This document shows positions 9,951-26,362 of a stretch of DNA of 32,000 bases, piece by piece. This DNA is from Phytohabitans aurantiacus (GTDB lineage: Bacteria; Actinomycetota; Actinomycetes; Mycobacteriales; Micromonosporaceae). Position 1 is the stretch's first letter. Every line of letters begins with the position of its first letter. The translations under genes were made by a program, and so were the position numbers. The notes below the pieces were generated by a model that was given only the letters and a program-made list of their open reading frames with translations, had not been told where the DNA came from and did not search any database. The stretch is from positions 186,348 through 218,347 of the forward strand of contig NZ_BSDI01000004.1 in NCBI RefSeq assembly GCF_027923225.1. Reading direction: 5' to 3'.

Positions 9951-11260
9951 TGGGCGGCCCCATTTGATGTGTTCAGGTGTGACTGCGCGTGGCGCACCGT
10001 CTTCAGTGGACCACCAGCGGCGAAGTACCGGCGCCCGGCGATCAGCAGCTCCTCGGCGGGAAACTTCGTGATCAGCTCGCAGCCGTCGGCGGTCACCACG
10101 ACCTCCTCCTCGATGCGCGCCGCGGAGTACCCGTCGCCGGCTGGCCAGTACGTCTCCAGGGCGAAGACCATGCCCTCTTCGAGCACCTCCGGATGGTCCA
10201 GCGACACCAGGCGACTGAACACCGGCTTCTCCCAGATGGAGAGTCCGACGCCGTGGCCGTACTGGAGGGCGAACGCGGCCATCTCGTCGGGGAAGCCGAA
10301 CTCTTCCGCACGAGGCCACACCGACACGATGTCGGCCGTCGTGGCACCCGGTTTCACGAGCGCGATGGCCCGGTCCATGTACTCCCGGCAGCGCACGTAC
10401 GCGTCGCGCATCTGGGGCGAGGCGCTGCCCACCGCGAAGCACCGGTAGTAGCAGGTGCGGTAGCCGAGGTGGCTATGCAGGATGTCGAAGAACGCCGGGT
10501 CGCCAGGGCGCAGCAGGCGATCGCTGTAGACGTGCGGGTGGGGGGCGCAGCGCTCACCGGAGATGGCGTTGACGCCTTCGACGTACTCGCTGCCGAGGTC
10601 GTAGAGCACCTTGCTGACCAACCCGACGCACTCGTTCTCGCGTACTCCCGGGCGGAGGAACTCGTACAGCTCCTCGTAGGCGGCGTCGACCATCGCGCAC
10701 GCCTGCGCGAGCAGGCTGATCTCGTCGCGGGTCTTGATGCGCCGCGCCTCCAGAAACACCTGCTGTCCGTCCACGATGGTCAGACCCTCGGCCTGGAGCG
10801 CCGCGAGGACCGGCATCTCGACGAGGTCGACGCCGACCGGGGCGTCGGCGAGCCCGTGCTCGCGCAGCACGGTAGCGACCTTCGTGGCCACGTCGGCGGC
10901 GATCCCCGCGTCAGGGTGGAAGGCGCCGCGCAGCGTGGAGATGCCGGCGCGGGCGCGCTCGGTGCCGTCGAGCCACGGGTTGTAGAGCTGGTGGTGCCGG
11001 GCAGCCGAGCCGAAGTCCCAGATGACCGGCTCGCCGCCGCGCGGCAGCACCGCGAAGCGGATCAGCTTGTCCATCGCCCACGTGCCGATGTGGGTCGACG
11101 TCATGTACCGGATGTTGGCGAAGTCGAAGGTGAGCAGCGCGCCCAGCTCGGACGCTTCCAGATGGGTCTTCAGGCGGGACAGGCGCTCGGTGCGCAACCG
11201 GTCGAGATCGACGCGCTCTTCCCAGTCGACGGCGTTGGTCCCGAACGTACGAATTGCCAT
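9947..11260 (-). CDS. M24-fold (creatinase / Xaa-Pro peptidase-like) hydrolase, first structural gene of the operon
   Basis: 437 aa. The N-terminal creatinase-type domain (..RL.RL...L....L.ALL.FD..NIRY.T) is followed by a pita-bread domain (IKT.DEI.LL..A.AMVDAAY..L...L.PGV.ENE......K.L...G.E.V...N..SGER..PHPH...DR.LRPGD..F.DI......GYRTCYYR.F.VG......DAY..C.....A.AL.KPG.T..D......A.E.GF.......FA.QYGHG.GL..WE.P.......D....L.EGMVFALE.Y). Peptidase versus non-peptide substrate cannot be decided from sequence. Confidence 0.8.
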   Translation of the reverse strand: MAIRTFGTNAVDWEERVDLDRLRTERLSRLKTHLEASELGALLTFDFANIRYMTSTHIGTWAMDKLIRFAVLPRGGEPVIWDFGSAARHHQLYNPWLDGTERARAGISTLRGAFHPDAGIAADVATKVATVLREHGLADAPVGVDLVEMPVLAALQAEGLTIVDGQQVFLEARRIKTRDEISLLAQACAMVDAAYEELYEFLRPGVRENECVGLVSKVLYDLGSEYVEGVNAISGERCAPHPHVYSDRLLRPGDPAFFDILHSHLGYRTCYYRCFAVGSASPQMRDAYVRCREYMDRAIALVKPGATTADIVSVWPRAEEFGFPDEMAAFALQYGHGVGLSIWEKPVFSRLVSLDHPEVLEEGMVFALETYWPAGDGYSAARIEEEVVVTADGCELITKFPAEELLIAGRRYFAAGGPLKTVRHAQSHLNTSNGAAQ

Positions 11261-11312
11261 CGCGACCTCCTGTGACGGAGGACACCAGTCAACGACATGT
11301 CAAGGACGCGTG

Positions 11313-11972
11313 TCAAGCGTCACTTAACAGTGAATTGTCTTGGACAAACCAGACACCAACGGCGGGCACCACGCCATCGTTGCGGTACCGGTGCGGCGTG
11401 CTCGACGGGAACGACACCGCGTCACCCGGGCCCAGGTGGTGCTCCTCGAAGCCCAGCGTCAGCGTCAACTCGCCCTCGACCAGATACCCGTACTCCACAC
11501 CGGAGTGCCGCATCAGCGCGGTGCCACTCGACGATGTGCCGCCCGGCGCGTAGGTGACGAGCAGGAAGTCGAGGTGCGTGCCCGGCAGGTGGCCGAGCCG
11601 CTCCCACGTCACACCCGAGTCGAGCCGGAGGATCTCGCGCGCCGCCGGCCGCACGATCGGCCCGATCCGATGCAACACGGTCTGGGCGAGCGCGGCCGTC
11701 GTGGACCGCGGCGGTGGCGCCTCGTCGGCCGCGTCGAAAACGTCTTCGACCGAGATGCCGAGCGCCTTGGTGATCGAGTACAGCGTGCTGACCGATGGGC
11801 GGCTCTTGCCGGTCTCGATCTGGGAGATCAGGCTCGCGGAGACACCCACCGCACGGGCCAGCCCGCGCAGGCTCATCCCGCCACGCAGCCGCGCCTCGCG
11901 GATGCGCTCACCGACCGGCGGCAGATCTGACGACACGCCCGCATCGTACAGTGTCGGTGAACAGTGCATCAT
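11313..11972 (-). CDS. XRE-family HTH transcriptional regulator with C-terminal cupin sensor domain
   Basis: The HTH reads GERIREARLRGGMSLRGLARAVGVSASLISQIETGKSRPSVSTLYSITKALGISVEDVF. The cupin part reads ...H.GVEYGYLVEGELTLTLGFEEHHLGPGDAVSFPSSTPHRYRNDG. The gene ends 52 bp upstream of the catabolic operon on the same strand. The start is uncertain (ATG 11972/11969 or GTG 11936). Confidence 0.8.
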   Translation of the reverse strand: MMHCSPTLYDAGVSSDLPPVGERIREARLRGGMSLRGLARAVGVSASLISQIETGKSRPSVSTLYSITKALGISVEDVFDAADEAPPPRSTTAALAQTVLHRIGPIVRPAAREILRLDSGVTWERLGHLPGTHLDFLLVTYAPGGTSSSGTALMRHSGVEYGYLVEGELTLTLGFEEHHLGPGDAVSFPSSTPHRYRNDGVVPAVGVWFVQDNSLLSDA

Positions 11973-11979
11973 ATATGTC

Positions 11980-12624
11980 GTGGCCTATCCTCCACCTTCC
12001 GCTCTTCCCACCCCTCCCAAGAAGAACAACGGTCTTCTCATCGGCTTGCTCGTAGCCGGTGCGGTGGCAGTGGTCATGCTCTCCGCCTGCGGTGTCGGCG
12101 GCTTCCTGATCTACCGCGAGTACAACGACTCCGAGGAGGCCGGCACCGACCTCGGCACCTCCGCGGAGATCGACGGTCTGGTCAACTACCGGACGTCGAA
12201 TCCCGCCGCGCTTTCCCAGAGCCACGTCACCAGCCCGGTGACGTACCCCATGACCCCGCCCGCCGGCGGCCCGCACTTCGGCCAGTGGCAGAACTGCGTC
12301 GGCGACGTCTACAACGCACCCATCGTGGACGGGAACGCCGTACACAGCCTCGAACACGGCGCGGTGTGGATCACGTACCAGCCCAGCCTCGGGTCCTCCG
12401 ATGTGGAGAAGCTCGCCGCCAAGGTGCGCGGGCAGGCATACATGATGATGAGCCCCTATCCCGGCCAGACCTCGCCGATCTCCCTGCAGGCGTGGGGCTA
12501 CCAGGTCACCGTCGATGACGCGGACGACGACCGGATCGACGAGTTCATCCGGCGGTTCCGCCAGACCGCCACCATGGAGCCCGGCGCCACGTGTGCGTCC
12601 GGCATCACGACCACCACCGGATGA
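11980..12624 (+). CDS. DUF3105-family membrane-anchored protein
   Basis: In the frame of track ORF 11554..12624 only the last ~214 aa look real. A Pro-rich N-terminus is followed by KKNNGLLIGLLVAGAVAVVMLSAC (a TM helix), then the DUF3105-like core ...Y...PP.GGPHF..W.......Y...I.D.NAVHSLEHGAVWITY.P.L....V.KLA.......Y.MMSPYPGQ..PISLQAWG. The first usable start upstream of the TM helix is the GTG at 11980. The upstream part of the track ORF is antisense to the XRE gene. Confidence 0.7.
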   Translation: MAYPPPSALPTPPKKNNGLLIGLLVAGAVAVVMLSACGVGGFLIYREYNDSEEAGTDLGTSAEIDGLVNYRTSNPAALSQSHVTSPVTYPMTPPAGGPHFGQWQNCVGDVYNAPIVDGNAVHSLEHGAVWITYQPSLGSSDVEKLAAKVRGQAYMMMSPYPGQTSPISLQAWGYQVTVDDADDDRIDEFIRRFRQTATMEPGATCASGITTTTG

Positions 12625-12828
12625 AACCTAGCCGCTAACTGATCACTAAAGAGATCACAGTCATTACAAGTGGCACAATGATTGTCTTCTCGAAGTCTTT
12701 CATGGCCGACACCTCACCCTATACTCCCTTTAAGCGTCTCGCTGACGGAGCGCTTCGCCGGCGCGGTTCGTGATCATAGCCGCCTACGCGACGGCAGATG
12801 CGAATCCGCGTCCTGGGTCGGAGGTGCG

Positions 12829-14043
12829 GTGTTCTACTTCTTTGTCAGTTATGCGCGGGGAAACGAAGACGACCTTGTTCGTAAGTTCTGCGCCGACCTG
12901 AGTATCGAGGTGCGCGTTCTCGCCGGCCTCCCTCGCGACGCCGAGGTCGGGTTCATCGACGCCGAGATGAGCCCCGGCACACGGTGGTCACGGCGGCTGG
13001 TCGACGCTCTCTCGACGTGCCGATCCTTCATCGCCCTGATGTCACCCCGCTACTTCTTGAGCCAGCACTGCGGCCAGGAATGGCAGATCTTCGCCGAACG
13101 ATCGTTGCGGTACGAGCAAGCAACGGGAACTGATCCCTCGTTGCTGAAGCCGCTCTTCTGGGTGCCGGTTCCGCGCGGCAAGATGCACCCAGCGGCGCTT
13201 CGCATACAGTTCGCCGATCAAGAGGACGACACCTGCCTGCGGCAGATGATGCGGCTAAAACGCCACGAAGACGCGTACAAGGAATTTCTCTTCAATCTGG
13301 CGAGCCAGATCGTCAACGCAGCCGATCAACATGACATTCCCAACGGCGTCACCTATTCCGATCTCGAGTCCGTGCCGAGCGTCTTCCACCATACGCAGGC
13401 GGTCATCAACGGGGTCCCCGCCAACGAACTGATCGACGCGACGACCGTCCACTTCGTCGTGGCGGCCCCTACACGCAACGAGGCCATGGCGATTCGCGCG
13501 GAATCCACCACCTACGGCGACCGGCGGCGCGACTGGGCGCCCTACCACCCTTCGTGGCCCGATCCACTGAGCGACTACGCGATCAGCATCGCCGCGAGCC
13601 GGAACTTCCTCACGCGCGTGGCGGACCTGGAGGAACTGGGCGAGCGCGCGGCGATCGCCAGTCAGCAGAACCACATCGTCGTGCTACTGGTCGACGCGTG
13701 GATCACCCGCCTGCTCGGCCCACTTGGTCTGCTCACTGCGTACGGGGGCCGTCCCGGAGCACCACGGAACCCCACGACGGTGGTGCTGGGGCCTGCCTCG
13801 GACGGTGACGAGGAGACCCGCGACCAGTGGCCAGCGCTGTCAGAGACCTGGACGGCGACCGCCGGCGGTCTGGCACCGGCCAACGACCTGTCCCGCTGGG
13901 GGATCTCCACGTACCACGACTTCGCCCGCGACCTACCGGCGGCGCTCGAAGTAGCCATGAACCGGGTCTTCGCTAGCGGCAACGTCCGCCGTCAGCCCCT
14001 GAACACCTTCCACATCGAGCGGCCCACGCTCGACCCACCTTGA
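12829..14043 (+). CDS. fxsC: TIR-like protein FxsC (N-terminal TIR-like domain + FxsC C-terminal domain) of the FxSxx-COOH system
   Basis: From the GTG at 12829 (GGAGG RBS 4 nt upstream): VFYFFVSYARGNEDDLVRKFCADLSIEVRVLAG...FIDAEMSPGTRWSRRLVDALSTCRSFIALMSPRYFLSQHCGQEWQIF. This shows the TIR hallmarks FFxSYA and SxxYxxSxxCxxE. The remaining ~270 aa (..HFVVAAPTR.E.......YG....DW.PY......PL.DYA..IA......T.V..L.......A...N.IVVLLVD.W) match what I recall of the FxsC C-terminal family. The track ORF start (TTG 12682) adds 49 unlikely residues. Confidence 0.8.
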   Translation: MFYFFVSYARGNEDDLVRKFCADLSIEVRVLAGLPRDAEVGFIDAEMSPGTRWSRRLVDALSTCRSFIALMSPRYFLSQHCGQEWQIFAERSLRYEQATGTDPSLLKPLFWVPVPRGKMHPAALRIQFADQEDDTCLRQMMRLKRHEDAYKEFLFNLASQIVNAADQHDIPNGVTYSDLESVPSVFHHTQAVINGVPANELIDATTVHFVVAAPTRNEAMAIRAESTTYGDRRRDWAPYHPSWPDPLSDYAISIAASRNFLTRVADLEELGERAAIASQQNHIVVLLVDAWITRLLGPLGLLTAYGGRPGAPRNPTTVVLGPASDGDEETRDQWPALSETWTATAGGLAPANDLSRWGISTYHDFARDLPAALEVAMNRVFASGNVRRQPLNTFHIERPTLDPP

Positions 14044-14081: not shown

Positions 14082-17000
14082 GTGACCGCACGCGCAACCG
14101 CCTCGCCAGCCGACTCCGCACCGGCCGGCGGCACCATCATCACCTTTTACTCGTACAAGGGTGGCACCGGGCGCACCATGGCCATGGCCAACGTCGCGTG
14201 GATTCTCGCCAGCAACGGCCTGCGCGTGCTCATTGTCGACTGGGACCTGGAGTCGCCTGGCCTTCACAAGTACTTCCACCCCTTCCTCACTGACAAAGAC
14301 CTGCGCGCCTCCGCCGGTGTCATCGACATGATCCGCGGTCACGCGGAGGCGATGATGCGGCCGATACACGACACCGAGACCACGCAGTGGTTGGAGACCC
14401 ACGCCGACGTGCTGTCCTACGTCCTCCCCGTGGAATGGTCCTTCCGGGACAAGGGATTCATCGAGCTGCTGCCGGCCGGCCAACAGGACAGTTCCTATAC
14501 CGAGACGGTGCGGACGTTCGACTGGACGGCCTTCTATGAACGCCTGGCCGGAAACGCCTTTCTGGAGGCTTTGGCCCGCAACATGCGCGCCAACTACGAC
14601 TACATCCTCATCGACAGCCGCACCGGAGTGAGCGACGCCGCGGGCATCTGCACCGTCCTACTTCCGGACTCTGTCGTGGATTGCTTCACCATGAACGCGC
14701 AGAGCATCGACGGCGCGGTCGCTATCGCTCACTCCATCGTCCGTCAGCGGGTCGAGCGACCGGTGCGGATACTGCCGGTGCCCATGCGCGTCGAGGATGC
14801 CGAACAGGTCAAGTTGGACGCCGGTCGCGATCACGCTCGGCAGAACTTCGCGCCCTTCCTGGGACGCGACCCGGAGGAGGTCAACCGGTACTGGGGTGAC
14901 ATCGAGATCCCCTACAAGTCCTTCTATGCCTACGAGGAGATACTCGCTCCGTTCGGCGACCGGTCACACCAGGAAGGATCGCTCCTTGCCGCGTACGAAC
15001 GGCTGACCCGGATCATCACCAGGAGCCAGGTGCAGCAGGTCGACGCGATCGAAGAGCGGGTACGCCGCCGGTGGCTGGCTGCGTTCGAACGCCGCCGCAC
15101 CGCCGGCGCGCTGGACATCTTCATCAGTTACGCGGCCGTCGACCGAATGTGGGCGGAATGGATCGCCGGGGAGGCGAACGACGCCGGCCTCCGAGCGAGT
15201 ATGCGGGAGATCGACTCCCAGCCGTTCCCCGAGCCGGGCAACGATCCGCCGAGCTTCCTGAGCAACACCAGCCGCGCGATCGTGCTGCTCAGCGAGGATT
15301 ACATCGCGTCGGTGAAGTCGGCCACGACGTGGAAGACCCTCGCGGCTCGCGAGCCCGTGGGCGGTCGCCCGTTCATCGTTCCGCTCCGTCTGGACAACGT
15401 GCGCCTGGAGGCGCCGTTCGACGAGCACATACCCATCGACCTCAGCGGACTGCACGAGCAGCGAGCCATCGACGTCGTACGCGAGGCGCTCCAGCAGCCC
15501 GTATACCCGCGATCCGCGACGCCGACCGAACCAGACGCACCGCGACGCCGCTTCCCTGCGACAGAGCCCCCACTGTGGAGCGTTCCCCAGCGCAACGGCA
15601 CGTTCACGGGCCGGCGACGTGCGTTGGAGGCGCTGCGCAACCGGATGGCTGCGTCTGGCTCGATGGCGAATCCTCAGGCGCTCCACGGCCTTGGCGGCGT
15701 CGGAAAGACCCAGATCGCCCTCGAATACGCGCACCGCTTCAAGGCGGACTACGACATCGTCTGGTGGGTCTCGGCTCAGCAGACGAGCCTCGTGCGCGCC
15801 TCGCTGTCGAACCTCGCGGATGCGCTCGGTCGACGCGCGGGCGAGAGCGTGACGGAACGGATCCGGTCCGCGCTAGAGGCGCTCCGGCAAGGTGTCCCGT
15901 ATCGACGCTGGCTGATCATCTTCGACAACGCGGACGATCCCGACGAGCTTCGCGAGTACGTGCCTCAGGGGCATGGCCACGTCCTGGTCACCACCCGGGA
16001 CAACGCCTGGTCACGCGTGGCGCAGATGGTGGACATCGGCGTGTTCGGACGCGAGGAGAGCGTGGCTCTCCTCCAGCGCCGGATTCCCAATCTTCCCACC
16101 GCCGACGCGGAGACGGTCGCGGAGCGGCTGGGCGACCTGCCACTCGCCATCGAGCAGGCTGGTGCCTGGCTTGCAGCGACAGCGATGCCGGTGTCCCACT
16201 ACCTCGAACTGCTCGAAACGCAACCCCTCCGGATGTTGGAGGAGGACCTACCGTCCGACTACCAGCAGAGCGCGGCCCAGCCATGGCTCGTCTCGCTCGA
16301 CAGCCTGCGCCAGCGCAGTCCCGCCGCCGCCAAGTTGCTGGAGGTGTGCGCGTTCTTCGCTTCCGAACCAATCCCAATCTCACTGCTCTACAGTGACCGC
16401 TTCATCAGCATGCTTCTCCCGTTCGACCCCTCGTTACGCGAGCGAATGCTGATGGCCAAGGCGATCAGAGAGATCAGCCGGTACGCGCTCGCACGCGTCG
16501 ACACGGGTAGACCAGCTGTTGGATCACAGCGCCGGGCGAGCGACCGGAGTGACGAGGGTGGGCAGAGTATCCAACTGCACCGTCTCATGCAGGCCGTCAT
16601 CCGCGCGCGACTCAGTCCCGACGAGCGTGACGAGAACCGCAAGCACGTCCATGAGATCCTGGCAGCCGCCAATCCGGACGGCCCCGACGAGCCTGAGAAC
16701 TGGCCAACCTACGCCGAGCTGTGGCCACACCTGCTGCCGTCCAAGACGCTCGACTCGGACCTGCCGGACGTCCGGCAACTCGTCTACGACATGTGTCGCT
16801 ACATGTGGAAGAGCTACGACTACCCGACCAGCCAATTCCTTGCCGAGCAGGCCGTCGAGAAGTGGGAGGAGGCATTCGGCGCCGATGACCCGCTCACCCT
16901 CATGATGCGCTTCAACCTGGCCACCGCCCTTCGCCTCCAGGCCAACTACACGCCTGCCTACGAGATCGACCGGGACATCTATGCCCGGCTCGGTCGTGTC

Positions 17001-18089
17001 GTCGGCGAGGACCATCCATACACGCTGATGGCGGGCGGCAACCTTGCCGCCGACCTACGCGCCCGCGGTGAGTTGCACGAGGCGCACAGGCTCGATGAGG
17101 CGATCGAGGCGCGGTGGCGGGAGACCTTCGGCGACGACTATCCACGCACCCTGATCGCGGGACACAACCTCGCGGTCTCACTCCGCCTCATCGGCAACCT
17201 GCAGGACGCGCTGCGGCTTCAGGAACGGATCCTGCGACTCCGCCGCGCGGTGCACGGCGATCAGCATCCGTACACGCTGTACTCGTCCAGCAACTACGGA
17301 CGGGATCTGCGCGACACGGGCGATCTGCGGGAGTCGCACCGCGTACTTGAGACTGCGTTGGAACGGCACCGGCGTGTGCTCGGCGAGGATCATCCGGAGA
17401 CCCTCCGGACGGCGAAGAACCTCGCGGTGACGCTACGCAAGCTGGGCGAGTTCGAGCGGGCGCACGCACTGAGCGCCGAAACCCTGGAAGGGTCGCAAAG
17501 GCTGTTCGGTCCTCACCACCCCGACACCCTGGCGTGCGGCATGAACCTCGCCTGCGACGAAGCGGCTCTCGGCCACGACCGGAACGCACGACGACGCGCC
17601 ACACCCATCGTCGACCTCTCCCGCCAGACCGGCGGCGAAAACCACTTTGCCACCTTGGCCTACGCCAACAACCTGGCGATCTTCATGCGTAAGACCGGTG
17701 ACGCCGCCGGCGCACACAGCATCACGACCGATGTGATCAACCGTTTTATGGCGACGGTCGGCCACGAACATCCCTACACACTCGCTGCCCTGCTCAACAA
17801 CGGCAACGACGACTACGACCTGGGCAACTATGCCGAGGCCCGGTCGTCCGACGAACGCGCCTACGCGGAGTTCACGCGGGTCCTGGGGCCCGAGCATCCG
17901 GACACGCTGGCGGCCGCCAGCAATCTCGTGGCCAGCCGCAGGGCCGATGGCGATCCGGGCGCGGCACGCGAACTGTTGGCCGGGATACTGAACACCTACG
18001 ATCGCGTGCTAGGTGCGCACCACCCCAATACCATCGCCGCGCGGGAAGGTCGCCGGCTCAGCTGCGATCTGGAACCACCACCTACCTGA
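14082..18089 (+). CDS. fxsD: FxsD-type multidomain STAND protein: variant ParA/MinD-like ATPase (KGGTGRT) + TIR-like domain + NB-ARC NTPase + C-terminal TPR array
   Basis: 1335 aa. Residues 17-330 read IITFYSYKGGTGRTMAMANVAWILASNGLRVLIVDWDLESPGL...ILIDSRTG.SD, a ParA/MinD fold with Arg in place of the P-loop Lys. Residues 344-460 read LDIFISYAAVDRMWAEWIAGE...AIVLLSEDYIAS (TIR-like). Residues 505-700 read FTGRR..L..L......GLGGVGKTQIALEYAHR...YDIVWWV......LIIFDNADD....VLVTTRD......GDLPLAIEQAGAWL (NB-ARC Walker A/B, RNBS, GLPL). Residues ~900-1320 hold about ten TPR_10/12-type repeats (..GEDHPYTL....NLA..LR..G....A..L). Confidence 0.85.
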   Translation: MTARATASPADSAPAGGTIITFYSYKGGTGRTMAMANVAWILASNGLRVLIVDWDLESPGLHKYFHPFLTDKDLRASAGVIDMIRGHAEAMMRPIHDTETTQWLETHADVLSYVLPVEWSFRDKGFIELLPAGQQDSSYTETVRTFDWTAFYERLAGNAFLEALARNMRANYDYILIDSRTGVSDAAGICTVLLPDSVVDCFTMNAQSIDGAVAIAHSIVRQRVERPVRILPVPMRVEDAEQVKLDAGRDHARQNFAPFLGRDPEEVNRYWGDIEIPYKSFYAYEEILAPFGDRSHQEGSLLAAYERLTRIITRSQVQQVDAIEERVRRRWLAAFERRRTAGALDIFISYAAVDRMWAEWIAGEANDAGLRASMREIDSQPFPEPGNDPPSFLSNTSRAIVLLSEDYIASVKSATTWKTLAAREPVGGRPFIVPLRLDNVRLEAPFDEHIPIDLSGLHEQRAIDVVREALQQPVYPRSATPTEPDAPRRRFPATEPPLWSVPQRNGTFTGRRRALEALRNRMAASGSMANPQALHGLGGVGKTQIALEYAHRFKADYDIVWWVSAQQTSLVRASLSNLADALGRRAGESVTERIRSALEALRQGVPYRRWLIIFDNADDPDELREYVPQGHGHVLVTTRDNAWSRVAQMVDIGVFGREESVALLQRRIPNLPTADAETVAERLGDLPLAIEQAGAWLAATAMPVSHYLELLETQPLRMLEEDLPSDYQQSAAQPWLVSLDSLRQRSPAAAKLLEVCAFFASEPIPISLLYSDRFISMLLPFDPSLRERMLMAKAIREISRYALARVDTGRPAVGSQRRASDRSDEGGQSIQLHRLMQAVIRARLSPDERDENRKHVHEILAAANPDGPDEPENWPTYAELWPHLLPSKTLDSDLPDVRQLVYDMCRYMWKSYDYPTSQFLAEQAVEKWEEAFGADDPLTLMMRFNLATALRLQANYTPAYEIDRDIYARLGRVVGEDHPYTLMAGGNLAADLRARGELHEAHRLDEAIEARWRETFGDDYPRTLIAGHNLAVSLRLIGNLQDALRLQERILRLRRAVHGDQHPYTLYSSSNYGRDLRDTGDLRESHRVLETALERHRRVLGEDHPETLRTAKNLAVTLRKLGEFERAHALSAETLEGSQRLFGPHHPDTLACGMNLACDEAALGHDRNARRRATPIVDLSRQTGGENHFATLAYANNLAIFMRKTGDAAGAHSITTDVINRFMATVGHEHPYTLAALLNNGNDDYDLGNYAEARSSDERAYAEFTRVLGPEHPDTLAAASNLVASRRADGDPGAARELLAGILNTYDRVLGAHHPNTIAAREGRRLSCDLEPPPT

Positions 18090-18093
18090 CCCG

Positions 18094-19848
18094 TCAAACC
18101 GCCAGACACTCCACTGGCTCCAGCCAGGTCGCAAGCTCCAAAGGGTCGACCGTCCCGTCGCCCGTGCCGCTGAGTTCGCGATGGACCGCCATGCAGAGCT
18201 CCGGAAAGCGCAGTCGGGGGGCGTCGGGATCGCGTTGGCAGGCGAGAGCCAGCCCGATCCACGCGTCCACGCGATCGGTCGCCACGATCTCGGCCGCGTA
18301 CGCCCGACGCGCCGCGGGCAGATCACCCGCCGCCAACGCAATGTCGCCAACCGTCGCGTTCTCCCCCGCGGACAGCGCGGCGAACCGCGCGGGCTCGACG
18401 ATCCGCAACCGAGCCAGATCCAGGCGGGCGCTGCGCGTCAGCATCCGCCCGGCGCGCACCGTTTCCGTCGGCACCGGATCGCGAGGGCAGGGCATGCTCG
18501 CCTGCCAGGCAGACGCCAACCGCCGCACGGCGGCCGTCTCCGGCAGCCGGTTCCGTAGCTGCCAACCCACCCTGTGGTCGTCGGCGGCCTCCGCCGCCAT
18601 CGCCACAGTCACGGCATCGGCTGCCTCCTGCTGCCACGGCGATTGCGCGGCCCGCATCCCAGCAAGGAATTCCAGACCCAAGGACGTGAAGCGCCCCGAC
18701 GCTTCGAGGATGTCGAGCGTCCGCCACACGCGATCCCGCCAGCGTACGAACTCGACCTGGGCGAGCTGGCCGGGCCCTTCGGTCAGCAACCGCCGCTGCA
18801 CCCGCCAGAAATCCACGACACCGTGGAAGGCATACGCGCCTTGCAACAAAGCGCCGAGCGGACGGGGATCGTCGCGCCAGGGCGCATAGTGCCGTGGCCG
18901 GTCGTCCCTCTCGTACAGCGGCTGTATGTCGAGCAGCCCGCCGAGCTTCGCGTGCTGGAACTCGTGCAACAAGCCCAAGGCGAGCGCACGGCCGTTGACG
19001 GGCGGCGTCAGCGACACCGCCCCGAACGCCTCCATGCTCGTGACGTTCATGCCGTGATCGGGCCGCTCGCTGTGCAGCGGGACGATCGTCGTCAGGCCCG
19101 CGGCGATCGCCTCGGCGTACGAGCGGTGGTGCTCCACCAGAATGGGCCACGCGTCGTCCAAGAGCCGCTGCCAATGGCGGATGTCATCGTCGCTCAGCCG
19201 TCCCTCGGCGCCTAGTTGGTGGCAGTCGCGAAACGGATCGACATCGTCCACGGACAGCTCGATGCGCAGATCGGTGGCGGCACAGCGCAGGCGACGGACT
19301 GCCTGCCAGCCGCCCGCACTGTGCTCGATATGTTCCGGTACGACCACGGTCCCCAGCTGAGTGCGCCCGCCGATGTGCTCCAGACTGGCGGTGTGCGCAT
19401 CACCCAGGATCGCACGCCCGAGCCCCGGCAGGGTGACGCTGCCGCCGTACACCTTGACCTCGAACTTCGCGTCGACACCCGCCGTCATGGCGGCCACGAG
19501 CGCGACGCCGGCCATGTATTCGAGGCGTGCTTCCAGGCCGCCTTGGGCCTCGGATCCACCGCGGACCGCGCGCAGTGTGGCCGTCAACCACGCGCCAACA
19601 TGCGGCTGGAGCAGCAGTAGGCGTACGGCGGCCGGGGACCGGCGCTCGGCCGCCACCAGCACGTCGAAGTACTCGGCGATTCTGGCCGACCGCGCAGCGG
19701 CCACCAGCTGGCCGAGCATCAGTTGTCGCCTGCTCACCTGCGCGGCGCGGAGTCTGCCCACGATCCGGCCATCGCCGAGGCCGCTGGCAAGGGCCGCGAA
19801 GTCGGCGCTATCGAGGCGATGCGTCGTTTCCGGCGTCAGGAGTTCCAT
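18094..19848 (-). CDS. HExxH-motif protein of the Fxs system (putative peptide-modifying metalloenzyme; this family has been assigned as 2-oxoglutarate-dependent peptide beta-hydroxylases)
   Basis: The motif LGLLHEFQHAKLGGLLD has its HEFQH codons at 18952-18966. The N-terminus MELLTPETTHRLDSADFAALASGLGDGRIVGRLRAAQVSRRQLML looks like the conserved start of HEXXH-domain partners of FxsB. I chose the ATG at 19848. The track start at 19998 would overlap fxsB by 190 nt and adds a low-complexity, non-homologous stretch. Confidence 0.8.
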   Translation of the reverse strand: MELLTPETTHRLDSADFAALASGLGDGRIVGRLRAAQVSRRQLMLGQLVAAARSARIAEYFDVLVAAERRSPAAVRLLLLQPHVGAWLTATLRAVRGGSEAQGGLEARLEYMAGVALVAAMTAGVDAKFEVKVYGGSVTLPGLGRAILGDAHTASLEHIGGRTQLGTVVVPEHIEHSAGGWQAVRRLRCAATDLRIELSVDDVDPFRDCHQLGAEGRLSDDDIRHWQRLLDDAWPILVEHHRSYAEAIAAGLTTIVPLHSERPDHGMNVTSMEAFGAVSLTPPVNGRALALGLLHEFQHAKLGGLLDIQPLYERDDRPRHYAPWRDDPRPLGALLQGAYAFHGVVDFWRVQRRLLTEGPGQLAQVEFVRWRDRVWRTLDILEASGRFTSLGLEFLAGMRAAQSPWQQEAADAVTVAMAAEAADDHRVGWQLRNRLPETAAVRRLASAWQASMPCPRDPVPTETVRAGRMLTRSARLDLARLRIVEPARFAALSAGENATVGDIALAAGDLPAARRAYAAEIVATDRVDAWIGLALACQRDPDAPRLRFPELCMAVHRELSGTGDGTVDPLELATWLEPVECLAV

Positions 19849-21031
19849 CTTGGAGTCGTCCTTTGAGTACAGCGGCAAGATCGGCGTGAACGCGAGGAAG
19901 CACGTGACGAATGAGGCGACCAAGGTCAGCGCAGTAGACCGATGGATTACGGAAGCCCGTCTCCGCACGGTACCGGTGCGGATAGTAGCCGCCACCACAT
20001 ATCCGATGCAGCGGACAGGCCAGACAATCGTCGGAAAGTGCGTCTAGGCCGATCTGCCGGTCTTGGATCTCGGGGTGCTCCAGCACCTCGTCAAGGCTGT
20101 GGTCGAAGACGTTCATGCCGGTGTCGACAGCGCCTGGATACGTGGACCGCAGGGTGTCGATCTGCTCGTACGCGCCGTCGACGTCCACGACGACGGTCGC
20201 CACGGGGCTGAGGCCGATCGTCTCGATGCGGCTTGTGCCGCCCAGCGCTAGGCTGATTACTTCTTCGAAGAATCGAACGCGCGTTTCCCGAACTGGCGCG
20301 TCGTACCAACGATCGAAGGCGGCCACCAGCCAGTCGCCGTAGAGCGTGTCCCCCGCCGACCATCGCGGCGGAGGACTCGTCCAGTTCCCGTGCGGCAGCA
20401 GAAAGTCGATGGCGGGCGGATCATACTGGAGCAGACTGTCGAATGTAGATACCGGGTCGTTGTCCAGGTCGATGACGCTGAGGATGCCAGCGAAGTGTTC
20501 CGGACGAAGGCGCAACGAGCGCAGTGCCCGGTCCACCGCATCGAAGGAACTGCGACCGTTGGCGTACCGCCGATGCCGGTCGTTCGCCCGGCGGTCTCCG
20601 TCCAGGCTTACGCCGATGCGGATGCCTGCCTGGCACAAGCGATCGATCACGCGGTCGTCGAGCAGGACGCCGTTGGTCTGGACTGTGATGTCCACAATGG
20701 CCTGTGGTGCGACGGCGGCACGCACCCGGTCGGAAGCGCGCACAAGAGCGTCCACACCGACCATCATGGGCTCACCGCCGTGCAGCACGACCCGAAGCGG
20801 TCGCCCCGTATCGCCGACATGGTCGGCAATCCGTTCGCATACCCGATCTAGCACGCGGTCCGACATGGCCGAATTGACCTGTCGCCAAGCCGTGTCGGCC
20901 AGTTCGTACATGTAGCAGTAGTCGCAAGCCAGGTTGCACCGGGTGTGGAGCTTGAGCACGAACTCACGGAACGGCGTCCGCCGACGGTCGTGGGCTCGGA
21001 CCAGTGGCACAGCTACATGGCCGAGTTCCAA
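19808..21031 (-). CDS. fxsB: FxsB-family radical SAM / SPASM peptide maturase (cyclophane-forming)
   Basis: PFREFVLKLHTRCNLACDYCYMYE carries the CxxxCxxC radical-SAM cluster (codons at 20915-20938), and VVLHGGEPMM follows. The C-terminal SPASM-like Cys cluster reads DDCLACPLHRICGGGYYPHRY....G..NPSVYC. The start is either the TTG at 21031 (19-nt overlap with fxsA) or the GTG at 21010 (2 nt after the fxsA stop). Confidence 0.85.
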   Translation of the reverse strand: MELGHVAVPLVRAHDRRRTPFREFVLKLHTRCNLACDYCYMYELADTAWRQVNSAMSDRVLDRVCERIADHVGDTGRPLRVVLHGGEPMMVGVDALVRASDRVRAAVAPQAIVDITVQTNGVLLDDRVIDRLCQAGIRIGVSLDGDRRANDRHRRYANGRSSFDAVDRALRSLRLRPEHFAGILSVIDLDNDPVSTFDSLLQYDPPAIDFLLPHGNWTSPPPRWSAGDTLYGDWLVAAFDRWYDAPVRETRVRFFEEVISLALGGTSRIETIGLSPVATVVVDVDGAYEQIDTLRSTYPGAVDTGMNVFDHSLDEVLEHPEIQDRQIGLDALSDDCLACPLHRICGGGYYPHRYRAETGFRNPSVYCADLGRLIRHVLPRVHADLAAVLKGRLQDGTPDAGNDASPR

Positions 21032-21183
21032 CCAGCGACCGCGTCCTGCGGCCGGTCAATATCTTCTAGGATCCGGCGCAGGGAATGAGCGACGACTGAA
21101 CCGCCCAGCCTGGATAAGTCAGACAGACTGAGACCACTCAGATCAACCAGCTCAGGCTGGTTGTCATCAACCGTTGCATCCAC
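21013..21183 (-). CDS. fxsA: FxSxx-COOH-family RiPP precursor peptide (56 aa, C-terminus WNSAM), not in the supplied ORF track
   Basis: My translation of the minus strand from the GTG at 21183 gives MDATVDDNQPELVDLSGLSLSDLSRLGGSVVAHSLRRILEDIDRPQDAVAGWNSAM* with a TAG stop at 21015-21013. An in-frame TAA lies 4 codons upstream, so this GTG is the first possible start. An AAGGG RBS lies 6 nt upstream. The ORF sits immediately 5' of fxsB, and the last five residues fit aromatic-x-S-x-x-COOH. Confidence 0.75.
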   Translation of the reverse strand: MDATVDDNQPELVDLSGLSLSDLSRLGGSVVAHSLRRILEDIDRPQDAVAGWNSAM

Positions 21184-21454
21184 CCGGGGCCCTTACTAGT
21201 CGCAAACATTAAATAGTTGTTCGCGCCGGGGCCCGCAGAGGGCCTGCGGTGGCGCCGCTTGACATTAGCACTTCAAGCCGTCGCGCGCGCCATTTTAGCA
21301 CCCGATCGATGACCGCGCCACTGGGCCATTTGCACCAATGCACCCAATCGGCCGCCGAACGGGGAATAGCAGACAGGCGCCATTACAGATCACGGTCGTT
21401 CCGTTGCATACTGCTATCATCACGCCCGCATCGGATGCGACCCGGAGCGTTGCC

Positions 21455-23185
21455 GTGGCCCAGCCGAACGACCCGACCCAGCATCGTCCCGCCATCAACG
21501 CGCTCAGGCTCGGAATCACCGTGACGGCAGTCGTGTCCCTCCTGCTCGGCTATCTGGGACTGGACGCGTTCCTCAGCGGCTCTGATCAATACGGAAATAG
21601 GCCGATCGACCTCCTGTACTACGACGTCCAACTCTTCGTCCTGGGTGCCGACCCGCTCCAGCAACCCGGTCCCTACCCCTTGCTCCTTGAGATAGCTCGC
21701 CTGACAGCACCGCTGGCGACCATCACCGCTCTCGTGGAGGCGGCGCGGCTGCTCTTCGCCACCGAACTGCGAAGACTCCGCGCCCGGCGTGCTCGCGGTC
21801 ACGTCATCGTGTGCGGCGACACCTCGCTGGCCGGAATCCTCTCCCGCCGTCTCCATGCCGCTGGCCGGCGAGTCGTTCACGTACGAGCACAAGCCGAAGC
21901 CGTCCCGCCGAGTCCGTCGTATCCATTGATCGTGGTTGGCGACGCCCGGGACGCGGGCACCCTGACCGCCGCGGGGCTGAGCCGCGCCACCGCCCTGTAC
22001 GCCTGCGCGCACGAAAGCGCGACCAACATCGCCATCGGCCTGGCTGCTGGCCGTGAACGCCGCCTCCAGGGGCCGTCGCTGCCGATCTATACGCATGTGC
22101 CAGACCCGGACCTGTGCCTTACCCTGCAGGCCAGGTATCTCGGACTGCCGAATCCGCCCGGGGCTCGGCTCGACTTTTTCAACGTCGACGATCTGGCGGC
22201 CCGCAAGGTATTTCTGGAAGATCCGCTCGAGCCGGAGGTCAGGCCCCGGCAGTACATCCTGGTGGCTGGAACGACGCCGTTCGGACAAGCGCTCGCTGTG
22301 GAGGCTGCCCGCCATTGGCGACGAAGGCTCGCTCCGGATCCGAGTACCCGCCTCCGCATCGCGATCGTGGCCAGGAACGCCACCGAGACGCTCGCCAATC
22401 TCGCCCACCGCTATCCGTTTCTTCGACTCTCCTGTCGTCTCGACGCATACGACGCCGACCTCGTGGACATCCTGGCCACCGAGCTGGATGAGGCGCCCGA
22501 CCGCGCCTACATCTGTTACGCCAACGAAGAACGCGCCCTGAAAGCGGCACTTACCGCAGACCGGTACTGGCGAGGACGGAAGAACTGTGTCGTAGTGCGA
22601 CTGGACCAGCTCGCGGATTTCTCCGACGACGGTGGACTCGCCAGCCAGCTGCTCGACGACGGCCCTGCGCGGCTGCGGGTGTACGGCGTTCTGCGCGCCG
22701 CCTGCGATCCCGGGATGATCGCCGAAGATCTCGTGGAGCGCTTGGCTCGCGTCATCCACGACCGCTACCTGGTCGCGCGTCGCTCGCACGGCCAAGCCGA
22801 CAACTCCAGCCCGTCGATCGTTTCGTGGGAACGGTTGCCGCCGGAGCTGCGGCAGACCAACCGGGCACAGGCGGAGGACATCGGGCGGAAGTTGAGGGCC
22901 ATCGGTTATGTGCTCGTGCCACGGATGCGTGAGTCAGCAGATGAGGAAAGCATGAACGAGAACGAGATCGAACGGCTGGCGATGATGGAGCACGAACGGT
23001 GGTGCCTCGACCGCTTGGCGGCGGGTTGGCGCTACGGCGAGCGCCGTGATGACATCCGCAAGCTGCATCCGGCGCTTTGCGATTGGAGCAATCTCCCGCC
23101 GGACATCCGGGAGCGCAACCACGACGCCGTGCGAGAGGTACCTCTGATCCTCTCGGACGCCGGCTTCCAGCTGGTTCGGATCTGA
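21455..23185 (+). CDS. Membrane-associated protein with two Rossmann (TrkA-N-like NAD-binding) domains and two C-terminal RyR (ryanodine-receptor-type) domains
   Basis: The hydrophobic N-terminus reads LRLGITVTAVVSLLLGYLGLDAFL. Rossmann beta1-loop motifs are GHVIVCGDTSLAGILSRRLHAAGRRVVHV and QYILVAGTTPFGQALAVEAA. Two RyR repeats occupy ~22724-23182: ERLARVIHDRYLVARR......SIVSWERLPPELRQTNRAQAEDIGRKLRAIGYVL and ERLAMMEHERWCLDRLAAGWRYGERRDDIRKLHPALCDWSNLPPDIRERNHDAVREVPLILSDAGFQL. I prefer the GTG at 21455 (GGAG RBS 7 nt upstream) over the track ATG at 21338. Confidence 0.75.
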   Translation: MAQPNDPTQHRPAINALRLGITVTAVVSLLLGYLGLDAFLSGSDQYGNRPIDLLYYDVQLFVLGADPLQQPGPYPLLLEIARLTAPLATITALVEAARLLFATELRRLRARRARGHVIVCGDTSLAGILSRRLHAAGRRVVHVRAQAEAVPPSPSYPLIVVGDARDAGTLTAAGLSRATALYACAHESATNIAIGLAAGRERRLQGPSLPIYTHVPDPDLCLTLQARYLGLPNPPGARLDFFNVDDLAARKVFLEDPLEPEVRPRQYILVAGTTPFGQALAVEAARHWRRRLAPDPSTRLRIAIVARNATETLANLAHRYPFLRLSCRLDAYDADLVDILATELDEAPDRAYICYANEERALKAALTADRYWRGRKNCVVVRLDQLADFSDDGGLASQLLDDGPARLRVYGVLRAACDPGMIAEDLVERLARVIHDRYLVARRSHGQADNSSPSIVSWERLPPELRQTNRAQAEDIGRKLRAIGYVLVPRMRESADEESMNENEIERLAMMEHERWCLDRLAAGWRYGERRDDIRKLHPALCDWSNLPPDIRERNHDAVREVPLILSDAGFQLVRI

Positions 23186-25265: not shown

Positions 25266-25342
25266 GAGCCCGGTGTTACCCAGCTCCACCGCTGCTCATG
25301 CCTCGCCCACTATGGTGTAGGCGTGCCAGCACGAGGACCGCT

Positions 25343-26362
25343 GTGATTCACCTACCCACCGCAGCACGGGGACCACTCCGGGCACTCGCGCTGCGCCTGG
25401 TCGCCGCCATCGGACTGGTCCTCTTCATCGTCTTCGTGGTCTATCTCGACCGAGACGGATATCGTGACGGCGACGACACGAGCGGTTTGACCCTGCTCGA
25501 CTGCTTCTACTACACGGTGGTGTCGCTGTCGACCACCGGTTACGGCGACATCACGCCAATCACGCCCCAGGCCCGGCTGGTAAACGTCCTCGTGGTCACG
25601 CCGGCACGAGTACTGTTTCTGATCATCCTGGTCGGCACCACACTCGAGGTGCTGACCGAGCAGTACCGGACCAACGCACGCCTCGCGCGGTGGAGAAGGC
25701 ATTTGAAGGACCACGTCATCGTCTGCGGGTACGGGACGAAAGGGCGCAGCGCCGTGGGCGCACTGCGCGAGAGCGGCTTCGACGTCAAGCGCATCGTCGT
25801 GGTCGAGTCGGACCGCCCGTCGGTGCGGCGAGCCGCCGCCGACGGCCTGGTCGCCATCGAGGGATCGGCAACCCAGTCGACCGTGCTGACGGACGCGCAC
25901 ATCAAGGACGCCAAGGCGGTCATTGTCGCGACCGACACCGACGAGGCTTCGGTACTGGTCACCCTGACCGCGCGGCAGCTCACGGCCGGCAAGGTGCGCA
26001 TCATCGCGGCGGCTCGGGAGGCGGAGAACGCACCGCTGCTCAAGCAGAGCGGCGCTCACCAGGTGATCGTCTCGTCGGCGACGGCCGGGCGCCTGCTGGG
26101 CCTCTCGACGTCGGCGCCGCCGCTCATCGACGTCGTCGAAGACCTGCTGACCCCGGGCGCGGGCATGGCGCTCGCGCTGCGCTCGGCGGCCCGCGACGAG
26201 GTGGGGCGCTCGCCGCGCGAGGTGACCGAGCCGGTCATCGCGCTGGTGCGGCTGGGCCGGATCATCTCGCTGGCCATGCCCGAAAGCGCCAAGATCGAGA
26301 CTGGTGACCTGCTGGTCTACATCCGCGACGACCGCCCGAGCCCGGTGACCGCCTCAGCCTGA
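25343..26362 (+). CDS. Two-TM K+ channel with cytoplasmic TrkA-N/TrkA-C (RCK) gating domains
   Basis: The pore and selectivity filter read DCFYYTVVSLSTTGYGDITP, flanked by TM helices LRLVAAIGLVLFIVFVVYL and VLVVTPARVLFLIILVGTTL. RCK-N is HVIVCGYGTKGRSAVGALRESGFDVKRIVVVE, and an RCK-C-like tail follows. I prefer the GTG at 25343 (GAGGA RBS 5 nt upstream). The track ATG at 25298 is the alternative. Confidence 0.8.
   Translation: MIHLPTAARGPLRALALRLVAAIGLVLFIVFVVYLDRDGYRDGDDTSGLTLLDCFYYTVVSLSTTGYGDITPITPQARLVNVLVVTPARVLFLIILVGTTLEVLTEQYRTNARLARWRRHLKDHVIVCGYGTKGRSAVGALRESGFDVKRIVVVESDRPSVRRAAADGLVAIEGSATQSTVLTDAHIKDAKAVIVATDTDEASVLVTLTARQLTAGKVRIIAAAREAENAPLLKQSGAHQVIVSSATAGRLLGLSTSAPPLIDVVEDLLTPGAGMALALRSAARDEVGRSPREVTEPVIALVRLGRIISLAMPESAKIETGDLLVYIRDDRPSPVTASA

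Follow-up and report, generated by a model that had tools for sequence, protein, structure and literature searches.

The closest described relative of the locus studied here is the standalone FxSxx peptide-processing system of Kaur, Burroughs, Iyer and Aravind (2020, PMC7159879), which in the passages devoted to it joins an AP-ATPase carrying TPRs to a TIR domain and an inactive MinD/ParA domain. In general, TIR domains of such conflict systems are predicted by these authors to generate nucleotide signals. In NCBIfam, the small TIR protein of the system, FxsC, is named "TIR-like protein". Here, we analyzed a stretch of 32,000 nucleotides from Phytohabitans aurantiacus (RefSeq assembly GCF_027923225.1, contig NZ_BSDI01000004.1, positions 186,348 to 218,347 of the forward strand), referred to as the window in the following. 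The window carries a complete Fxs locus, comprising FxsA, FxsB, an aKG-HExxH hydroxylase, FxsC, and a ParA-like/TIR/STAND/TPR protein that we call FxsD. Its architecture matches the published description of the FxSxx-COOH system, as far as this is laid out in those passages and in the NCBIfam families, and is in this sense already known. The passages on the TIR domains and the NCBIfam family names do not distinguish the two TIRs and do not comment on catalytic residues. Our comparison shows that the two domains differ systematically at one position: the glutamate of the TIR active site is nearly always kept in FxsC and nearly always lost in FxsD. We found no earlier mention of such a split into a live and a dead TIR in the Fxs literature, and nothing on triceptides together with TIR domains.

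The glutamate position in the TIR domains of FxsC and FxsD

FxsC and FxsD are encoded by neighboring genes on the plus strand of the window, and the start of FxsD lies 38 nt downstream of the end of FxsC. The features on which the comparison is built are as follows (window coordinates):

12829..14043, plus strand: FxsC gene, 404 aa, N-terminal TIR and C-terminal FxsC-specific domain (NF040588 FxsC_Nterm, TIGR04276 FxsC_Cterm, Pfam TIR_2)
12829..13329, plus strand: FxsC TIR domain, about aa 1-167 (secondary structure of the AlphaFold2 (AF2) model, Foldseek)
13042..13083, plus strand: FxsC alpha-C motif SPRYFLSQHCGQEW, S72-W85 (translation, family conservation)
13078..13080, plus strand: GAA, encoding the candidate catalytic glutamate E84 (translation, profile alignment to BtpA and Cat1)
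14082..18089, plus strand: FxsD gene, 1335 aa, ParA-like ATPase, TIR, STAND NTPase and TPR repeats (NF047398, NF040586, Pfam)
15117..15452, plus strand: FxsD TIR domain, aa 346-457 (Pfam TIR_2, 58.8 bits, gathering score 28)
15291..15332, plus strand: FxsD alpha-C stretch SEDYIASVKSATTW, S404-W417 (translation, hhalign to the FxsC motif)
15327..15329, plus strand: ACG codon of T416, at the catalytic-Glu position (translation, column aligned with AbTir E208)

The translation of 12829-14043 (plus strand) contains FIALMSPRYFLSQHCGQEWQIF, and that of 14082-18089 (plus strand) contains LLSEDYIASVKSATTWKTL. An earlier reading of this DNA, made from the letters and open reading frames (the sequence-only reading), had pointed to the two alpha-C stretches and to a Glu in one against a Thr in the other; retranslation agrees exactly with it for both stretches and for the codons of E84 and T416, and puts the stretches at residues 72-85 and 404-417. 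The GTG start at 12829 that it had used for numbering agrees with the N-termini of homologues (MLYFFLSYARG...) and has a GGAGG at 12820-12824, 5' of this start. Both proteins score above the cutoffs of their families. FxsC scores 135.9 bits with FxsC_Nterm (cutoff 130), 106.5 bits with FxsC_Cterm (cutoff 55), and 43.3 bits with Pfam TIR_2 (PF13676, residues 4-90, gathering score 28). FxsD is matched by the KGGVGR-variant ATPase family NF047398 at residues 18-218, by NF040586 (FxSxx_TPR) with 1012.7 bits at residues 501-1335 (cutoff 300), and by Pfam TIR_2, NB-ARC, TPR_10 and TPR_12; its identity as the FxSxx-COOH TPR protein agrees also with its adjacency to FxsC and to FxsA/FxsB. Because each alpha-C stretch lies inside a TIR_2 match above the gathering score, neither is a chance motif match.

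The equivalence of the two positions follows from profile comparisons. A 57-sequence profile of the FxsC TIR aligned by hhalign with a 50-sequence profile of the FxsD TIR at a probability of 90.5%, pairing HCGQEWQIF with KSATTWKTL and thus E84 with T416. A single-sequence phmmer search with the FxsC TIR against the PDB gave marginal matches only (E >= 0.4). Against solved TIR structures, the FxsC profile places its C-G-x-E-W block on ...QWPAREL of BtpA/TcpB and ...DWCWDEL of Cat1, in the WxxxE helix, Glu on Glu, with FxsC position 80 on the Trp of WxxxE. The family profile of the FxsD TIR matches the AbTIR, PdTIR and MyD88 TIR structures in the PDB with E-values of 1e-6 to 4e-3; against ...KKDWTNYELDG of AbTIR, the column of T416 falls on E208, which is experimentally essential for AbTir activity, and the next conserved Trp on Leu. 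At the sequence level, the position of AbTir E208, ThsB E85 and SARM1 E642 is thus held by Glu in FxsC (E84) and by Thr in FxsD (T416). The SxxYxxSxWCxxEL helix of NAD+-cleaving TIRs, with which FxsC had been superimposed in the sequence-only reading, is matched at five of its seven fixed positions (S, Y, S, C and E), while its Trp is His and its Leu is Trp in FxsC.

The predicted structure agrees with this placement. As modeled by AF2 (mean pLDDT 78.5), FxsC has strands at residues 4-7, 41-43, 66-71 and 106-110 and helices at 14-32, 55-63, 79-99 and 144-167, the secondary structure expected for the flavodoxin-like fold of a TIR domain, with alpha-C after strand C. E84 is part of helix 79-99, which follows strand 66-71 immediately, and stands 12 residues past S72 at the end of strand C, at the alpha-C position expected for the catalytic Glu of a TIR. 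The best Foldseek matches of the model in the PDB are the TIRs of RUN1, RPP1, L6, MAL and MyD88, with plant TIRs at the top and probabilities of 0.96-1.0.

To see how far the difference extends, we compared three sets: 62 related loci from a scan of one genome per species, which together with the window provide 77 FxsC-type TIRs; 67 distinct FxsD TIRs; and 181 FxsC family proteins, mostly representatives of 50%-identity clusters, drawn from about 1,400 with E <= 1e-30. The gene order is stable. FxsC is followed by a gene with an FxsD-type ParA-like domain in 61 of the 62 loci (the exception being L002), and the gene directly after FxsC also has the STAND/TPR module in 58; the taxa with this order include Micromonosporaceae, Streptomyces and a metagenome-assembled genome of Planctomycetales. 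The FxsC column holds Glu in 170 of the 181 family representatives (Gln in 8) and in 67/77 of the FxsC-type TIRs, against 3/67 in FxsD, where it contains L 25, V 18, F 10, T 5, gap 4, E 3, A 1 and W 1. The alignment of orthologues shows that the retention and the loss, seen by the sequence-only reading in this DNA, are systematic. In the motif of FxsC, S72 is kept in 165, P73 in 163, Y75 in 164, C81 in 178, G82 in 176 and W85 in 160 of the 181 proteins; E84 is conserved to the same degree as fold-defining residues, while the flanking helix positions vary freely (20-48% for the top residue).

The FxsC copies without Glu follow a pattern. Glu is present in FxsC of all single-system loci (52/52), whereas each of the ten Glu-less copies shares its array with a further FxsC-type TIR or FxsC/FxsD system, and for at least eight of them the same array holds a Glu-bearing paralogue. 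The fetched stretches of L035 and L039 end before the FxsC of the neighboring system; for L035, that FxsC falls within the overlapping locus L033, where it carries Glu. In three loci (L013, L014 and L029), a short TIR-only paralogue with Glu comes right after a full-length FxsC with Gln. Extra short TIR-only paralogues of this kind are found between FxsC and FxsD in some Plantactinospora and other Micromonosporaceae loci:

10926-12240, plus strand: short TIR-only FxsC paralogues in L013 and L014
11204-12031, plus strand: short TIR-only FxsC paralogue in L029
about 10425-12236, plus strand: short TIR-only FxsC paralogues in L009 and L011

An FxsC subclade carries G-R-H-W-W in the motif, or has Glu replaced by V, A or D (the second, minus-strand systems of L007, L016 and L018, and also L035, L036 and L039). 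On the FxsD side, Phytohabitans kaempferiae (L022) has an extra TIR-STAND gene directly 3' of FxsD at 15306-17684 (plus strand), which lacks the ParA-like domain and whose TIR reads ...FTGDEW..., with Glu right before the anchor Trp.

Other features of the active site were compared as well. In FxsC, the BB-loop residues G50 (166/181) and D44 (156/181) are kept; the alignment pairs G50 with the BB-loop Gly of BtpA, and the equivalent AbTir mutant, G174A, is inactive. The near-invariant W53 (174/181) aligns with AbTir L177, which contacts a nicotinamide mimic. In FxsD, the stretch that aligns with the BB loop varies between sequences, with partial deletion or shortening in the Streptomyces clade. 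Since its Glu column is aligned with AbTir E208 and lost, the FxsD TIR is very probably non-catalytic.

It may be objected that this loss is apparent, and that the FxsD TIR still catalyzes through a shifted or alternative acid, either a Glu that precedes the canonical position by one residue or the WAEW Glu of helix A. A Glu at -1 does occur in 27 of the 67 FxsD TIRs, out of register with the catalytic position, and the D-R-x-W-A-E-W motif of helix A is nearly invariant. Yet the window FxsD has Thr-Thr at -1 and 0, both families have their register fixed by the Trp that follows the catalytic position, and the column is hydrophobic (Leu, Val or Phe) in 79% of the FxsD TIRs. The variable stretch aligned with the BB loop also speaks against such catalysis. 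AbTir E208D, with an acid in the right position, has only reduced activity, so a Glu out of register is unlikely to serve. We regard this explanation as highly improbable.

A candidate sensor and executor pair

In the field, a TIR that has Glu at this position is by convention taken to be putatively catalytic. According to a recent (2026) preprint, a TIR is predicted to be catalytic if the C-alpha of this Glu lies within 3 Å of that of ThsB E85. The Glu predicted activity also in TLR4, whose TIR makes cyclic ADP-ribose (cADPR) as reported in the same preprint, and for this reason we dropped the argument that TLRs keep the Glu and are nevertheless inactive. The alpha-C Glu is necessary for activity but no proof of it. 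Considering the residues kept and lost, FxsC is plausibly an NAD+-consuming enzyme with an atypical active-site helix. The missing alpha-C Trp, which cyclising TIRs need, argues against a typical cyclase with cADPR-type chemistry, and an active FxsC would more likely yield a non-cyclic product or carry out a transfer.

We propose the following mechanism, to which we assign a rough probability of 0.45: the dead scaffold TIR of FxsD, carried on a STAND sensor, would recruit or template the Glu-bearing TIR of FxsC, which would consume NAD+. FxsD would act as sensor and switch, with its TPR repeats, its STAND NTPase with an intact P-loop, its degenerate ParA-like domain and its Glu-less TIR. First, the TPR array would bind a ligand; this may be the matured C-terminal peptide of FxsA, as suggested by the FxSxx motif at a fixed distance to the C-terminus and by gene linkage, FxsB lying within 10 kb of FxsC in 51/63 loci. 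The STAND module would then oligomerise and cluster the dead TIR domains. The clustered FxsD TIRs may in turn serve as the non-catalytic partner or template for the assembly of FxsC TIRs, a step proposed from the conserved gene order. Finally, a composite active site on E84 of FxsC would consume NAD+, with ADP-ribose or an ADP-ribose conjugate as the expected product rather than 2'cADPR or 3'cADPR.

Several observations weigh against this proposal. FxsC does not have the Trp, or another aromatic residue, of the WxxxE motif in the window: position 80 is His. This position is the most variable of the alpha-C helix of FxsC (Y 37, P 28, A 23, F 20, N 11, S 9, H 9 and others among the 181), and Trp is found there in 0/77 locus TIRs. 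Bacterial TIRs need the WxxxE Trp, which stacks on the nicotinamide mimic or substrate, for cyclisation; L6 W131A and ROQ1 W82A, in which it is replaced, have no NADase activity, and AbTir W204A has reduced activity. The Foldseek E-values for the FxsC TIR fold are weak (5e-3 to 8e-2, near 1e-2). FxsC matches no defence model of PADLOC (PADLOC-DB v2), Thoeris included; the ParA-like part of FxsD does match the candidate-system model PDC-M28B (5e-23). The out-of-register Glu in FxsD has been described above. The G-R-H-W-W-subclade FxsC proteins are paired with Glu-less FxsD TIRs, so that such a pair has no Glu-bearing TIR of its own, although each adjoins a second system. The division of labor is not universal either, as the FxsD TIRs of L038, L041 and L062 keep Glu, in the form of an E-W pair at the catalytic position of divergent FxsD proteins (L038 2968-3510, L041 12202-12735, L062 9981-10472). 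These three are divergent pairs without FxsB within 10 kb; no FxsB or hydroxylase was found in their fetched flanks, those of L038 and L062 being cut by contig ends. Because the Glu-keeping FxsD TIRs belong to such divergent pairs, the data suggest that the Glu loss in FxsD is a derived state. Lastly, the link between FxsA and the FxsD TPR domain is one that we infer, and it may not hold.

The same observations bear on a different explanation, in which both TIRs are non-enzymatic scaffolds, the Glu and the C-G-x-E-W block are kept for folding or for an interface, and the output comes from the C-terminal domain of FxsC or from the peptide. The unconstrained position of the alpha-C Trp, whose loss abolishes activity in L6 and ROQ1, and the absence of a PADLOC match for FxsC fit this explanation. 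The block is kept as a whole, C81, G82 and W85 included, as would suit a role in an interface or in packing, and Gln, His, Val, Ala or Asp are tolerated at the Glu position in some FxsC proteins. What speaks against it is the pattern of retention: with Glu in every single-system locus, and a Glu-bearing array paralogue for at least 8/10 replaced copies, the residue behaves as expected if every array has to provide its function once. FxsC also retains the Gly and Asp of the BB loop that activity requires, and the Glu predicted activity even in TLR4, long thought to be a pure scaffold. On balance, we consider pure scaffolding unlikely, although it deserves to be taken seriously.

FxsC could also be a tailoring or conjugating enzyme of the peptide pathway, whose TIR would transfer ADP-ribose from NAD+ to cyclophane-bearing FxsA or to another small acceptor, with FxsD as regulator or scaffold. 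The frequent proximity of FxsB to FxsC given above is consistent with this, and an absent cyclisation Trp suits a transferase or hydrolase better than a cyclase. Some Thoeris TIRs make a histidine-ADP-ribose conjugate. ADP-ribosylation of a triceptide after cyclophane formation is documented for minviopeptin. The responsible enzyme, MicD, has an ADP-ribosyltransferase (ART) fold rather than a TIR fold and belongs to a different cluster, and we rejected minviopeptin as an explanation of FxsC on these grounds. Moreover, FxsC/FxsD pairs occur without a nearby FxsB in 12/63 loci, the fusion of FxsC to a SAV_2336 (VMAP-like) protein points to signaling over biosynthesis, and STAND plus TPR is the architecture of a sensor. 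A biosynthetic role for FxsC is thus improbable.

Taken together, the sensor and executor mechanism remains our preferred reading. Of the division of labor put forward from the sequence, with FxsC as a potentially active enzyme and the FxsD TIR as a non-catalytic adaptor, the FxsD half is well supported at the sequence level (Glu in 3/67, in the column of AbTir E208), and FxsC does keep a Glu that aligns with those of BtpA and Cat1; what FxsC does not share with active TIRs is the WxxxE Trp. In an extended form, the Fxs locus would be a self-contained pathway from peptide to TIR, in which the TPR domain reads the C-terminus of FxsA and the dead TIR adaptor switches on FxsC, with a non-cyclic NAD+ product or peptide ADP-ribosylation as the outcome. 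We hold this extension to be decidedly doubtful. If true, it would represent a RiPP-triggered prokaryotic counterpart of plant sensor/executor pairs and animal adaptor cascades (RiPP, a peptide made on the ribosome and modified after its translation).

The question reaches beyond one genome. Fxs systems are widespread in filamentous actinomycetes, as the about 1,400 FxsC-like cluster representatives attest, and the chemistry of their peptides (cyclophane formation, beta-hydroxylation) is under study; the Glu split points to FxsC as the protein to assay. If the proposed mechanism is true, a RiPP would be linked to NAD+-based signaling. In addition, the missing WxxxE Trp predicts an unusual product, which would be useful for mapping TIR sequence to product.

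Composition of the locus

The remaining genes and domains of the Fxs locus in the window are:

13435..13977, plus strand: C-terminal domain of FxsC, aa 203-383, flavodoxin-like alpha/beta (AF2 pLDDT 84, pTM 0.81, five strands)
14133..15086, plus strand: ParA/MinD-like domain of FxsD, variant Walker A KGGTGRT at aa 26-32 (14157-14177)
15582..18086, plus strand: STAND (NB-ARC) NTPase with intact P-loop GLGGVGKT, and TPR repeats, of FxsD (NF040586, Pfam)
18094..19848, minus strand: aKG-HExxH-type peptide beta-hydroxylase (TIGR04267, 160.7 bits; HEFQH motif intact)
19808..21031, minus strand: FxsB, cyclophane-forming radical SAM/SPASM maturase (TIGR04269, 450.3 bits, cutoff 370; Cys motif CNLACDYC)
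21013..21183, minus strand: FxsA precursor peptide, 56 aa, C-terminus WNSAM (TIGR04268 FxSxx-COOH, 35.3 bits, cutoff 28)

All Fxs components score above the curated cutoffs in scans with NCBIfam/TIGRFAMs profiles. The FxsA precursor, the FxsB radical-SAM cyclophane synthase and the aKG-HExxH hydroxylase make up the RiPP module of the locus, which is encoded on the minus strand and meets the plus-strand FxsC-FxsD pair tail to tail. The window has a G+C content of 68%, and its closest relative is a scaffold of Micromonospora sp., in which the FxsC match is 90% identical.

Two traits set this module apart from the FxSxx-COOH definition: FxsA ends in WNSAM, and the hydroxylase, with its HExxH intact, has a gene of its own. 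Regarding the first, the end of the peptide reads W-N-S-A-M instead of F-x-S-x-x, and the aromatic residue of the cyclophane would be Trp. As for the hydroxylase, HEFQH stands at residue 295, numbering from the in-frame ATG at 19848. With this ATG, the hydroxylase reading frame would overlap the end of FxsB by 41 nt (19808-19848, minus strand), an arrangement suggestive of translational coupling. Other genomes have a fusion of the two with an inactivated hydroxylase, as recorded in the NCBIfam family "FxsBH". The stop of FxsA falls 16-18 nt within the longest FxsB open reading frame; the true start of FxsB is probably further downstream, because the match of the family model starts at residue 21.

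In FxsD, KGGTGRT replaces the deviant Walker A KGGxGK[ST], and the MinD/ParA-like domain of Fxs systems is predicted to be inactive in the account that Kaur et al. (2020, PMC7159879) give of the system. The C-terminal domain of FxsC carries the invariant motifs VHFVVAAP, YG..DWAPY.P, VVLLVDAW and D.ET. Its best Foldseek matches in the PDB are TIR domains and flavodoxins, all weak (TM 0.38-0.44). The idea that it is a second TIR was rejected: its comparison with the TIR profile by hhalign yielded no match (probability 0.6%), and a profile search of the PDB returned noise. FxsC, with both domains, also occurs fused to the C-terminal side of an approximately 450-aa SAV_2336 N-terminal domain protein (NF041121) in eight family members (P0037, P0058, P0068, P0083, P0084, P0100, P0141 and P0180), and P0141 has a STAND-like stretch between the SAV_2336 domain and FxsC. 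These fusions are probably the VMAP component of MoxR-vWA ternary conflict systems, an architecture on which Kaur et al. also report.

Around the locus, two TrkA-N domain proteins are encoded at 21338-23185 and 25298-26362 (both plus strand), one with a C-terminal RyR domain and the other with an ion-channel domain. Farther out, the minus strand encodes a vWA-domain protein (26354-29431) and an S8 subtilase with FG-GAP repeats (29770-31701). Upstream of FxsC, a DUF3105 protein (11554-12624, plus strand) and an XRE/cupin-type regulator (11313-11972, minus strand) occupy overlapping long open reading frames on opposite strands, and over the overlap a single reading is likely to be real.

Comparison with known TIR systems

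Among bacterial TIRs, FxsC can be compared with the NAD+-cleaving WxxxE proteins AbTir, BtpA/TcpB, TcpC, ThsB and Cat1, with which it shares the TIR_2 family, the position of the Glu and the BB-loop Gly. Unlike these, FxsC has no WxxxE Trp, and in its place shows the C-G-x-E-W block together with W53 in the BB loop. The idea of one TIR nucleating another is shared with the TLR-MAL-MyD88 cascades of animals, and the active filament of AbTir has been reported to resemble the MAL and MyD88 assemblies. The animal cascades recruit kinases through death domains, however, and no such output domain is present in FxsC or FxsD.

A close parallel is with the paired TIR receptors of plants, in which two linked genes encode TIR-bearing receptors with a nucleotide-binding domain and leucine-rich repeats (TIR-NLRs), for example RRS1 as the sensor and RPS4 as the executor. 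In such pairs, the sensor TIR lacks the Glu and the BB loop, yet supplies the partner surface for the executor active site. FxsC and FxsD agree with this arrangement in their genetic linkage, in the lost Glu on the FxsD side, where the stretch aligned with the BB loop is variable, and in the Glu, BB-loop Asp and BB-loop Gly kept by the FxsC partner. The differences lie in the attached domains: unlike the RPS4 executor, which is an NLR, FxsC consists of a TIR and a flavodoxin-like domain, and unlike the plant sensors with their leucine-rich repeats, FxsD has TPR repeats and a degenerate ParA-like domain. The putative FxsC/FxsD pair is also linked to a RiPP pathway. By analogy, there is good precedent for viewing FxsC and FxsD as a sensor/executor pair like those of the plant TIR-NLRs. 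If true, the pairing of a dead sensor TIR with a live executor TIR would be an old, recurrent design and no invention of plants.

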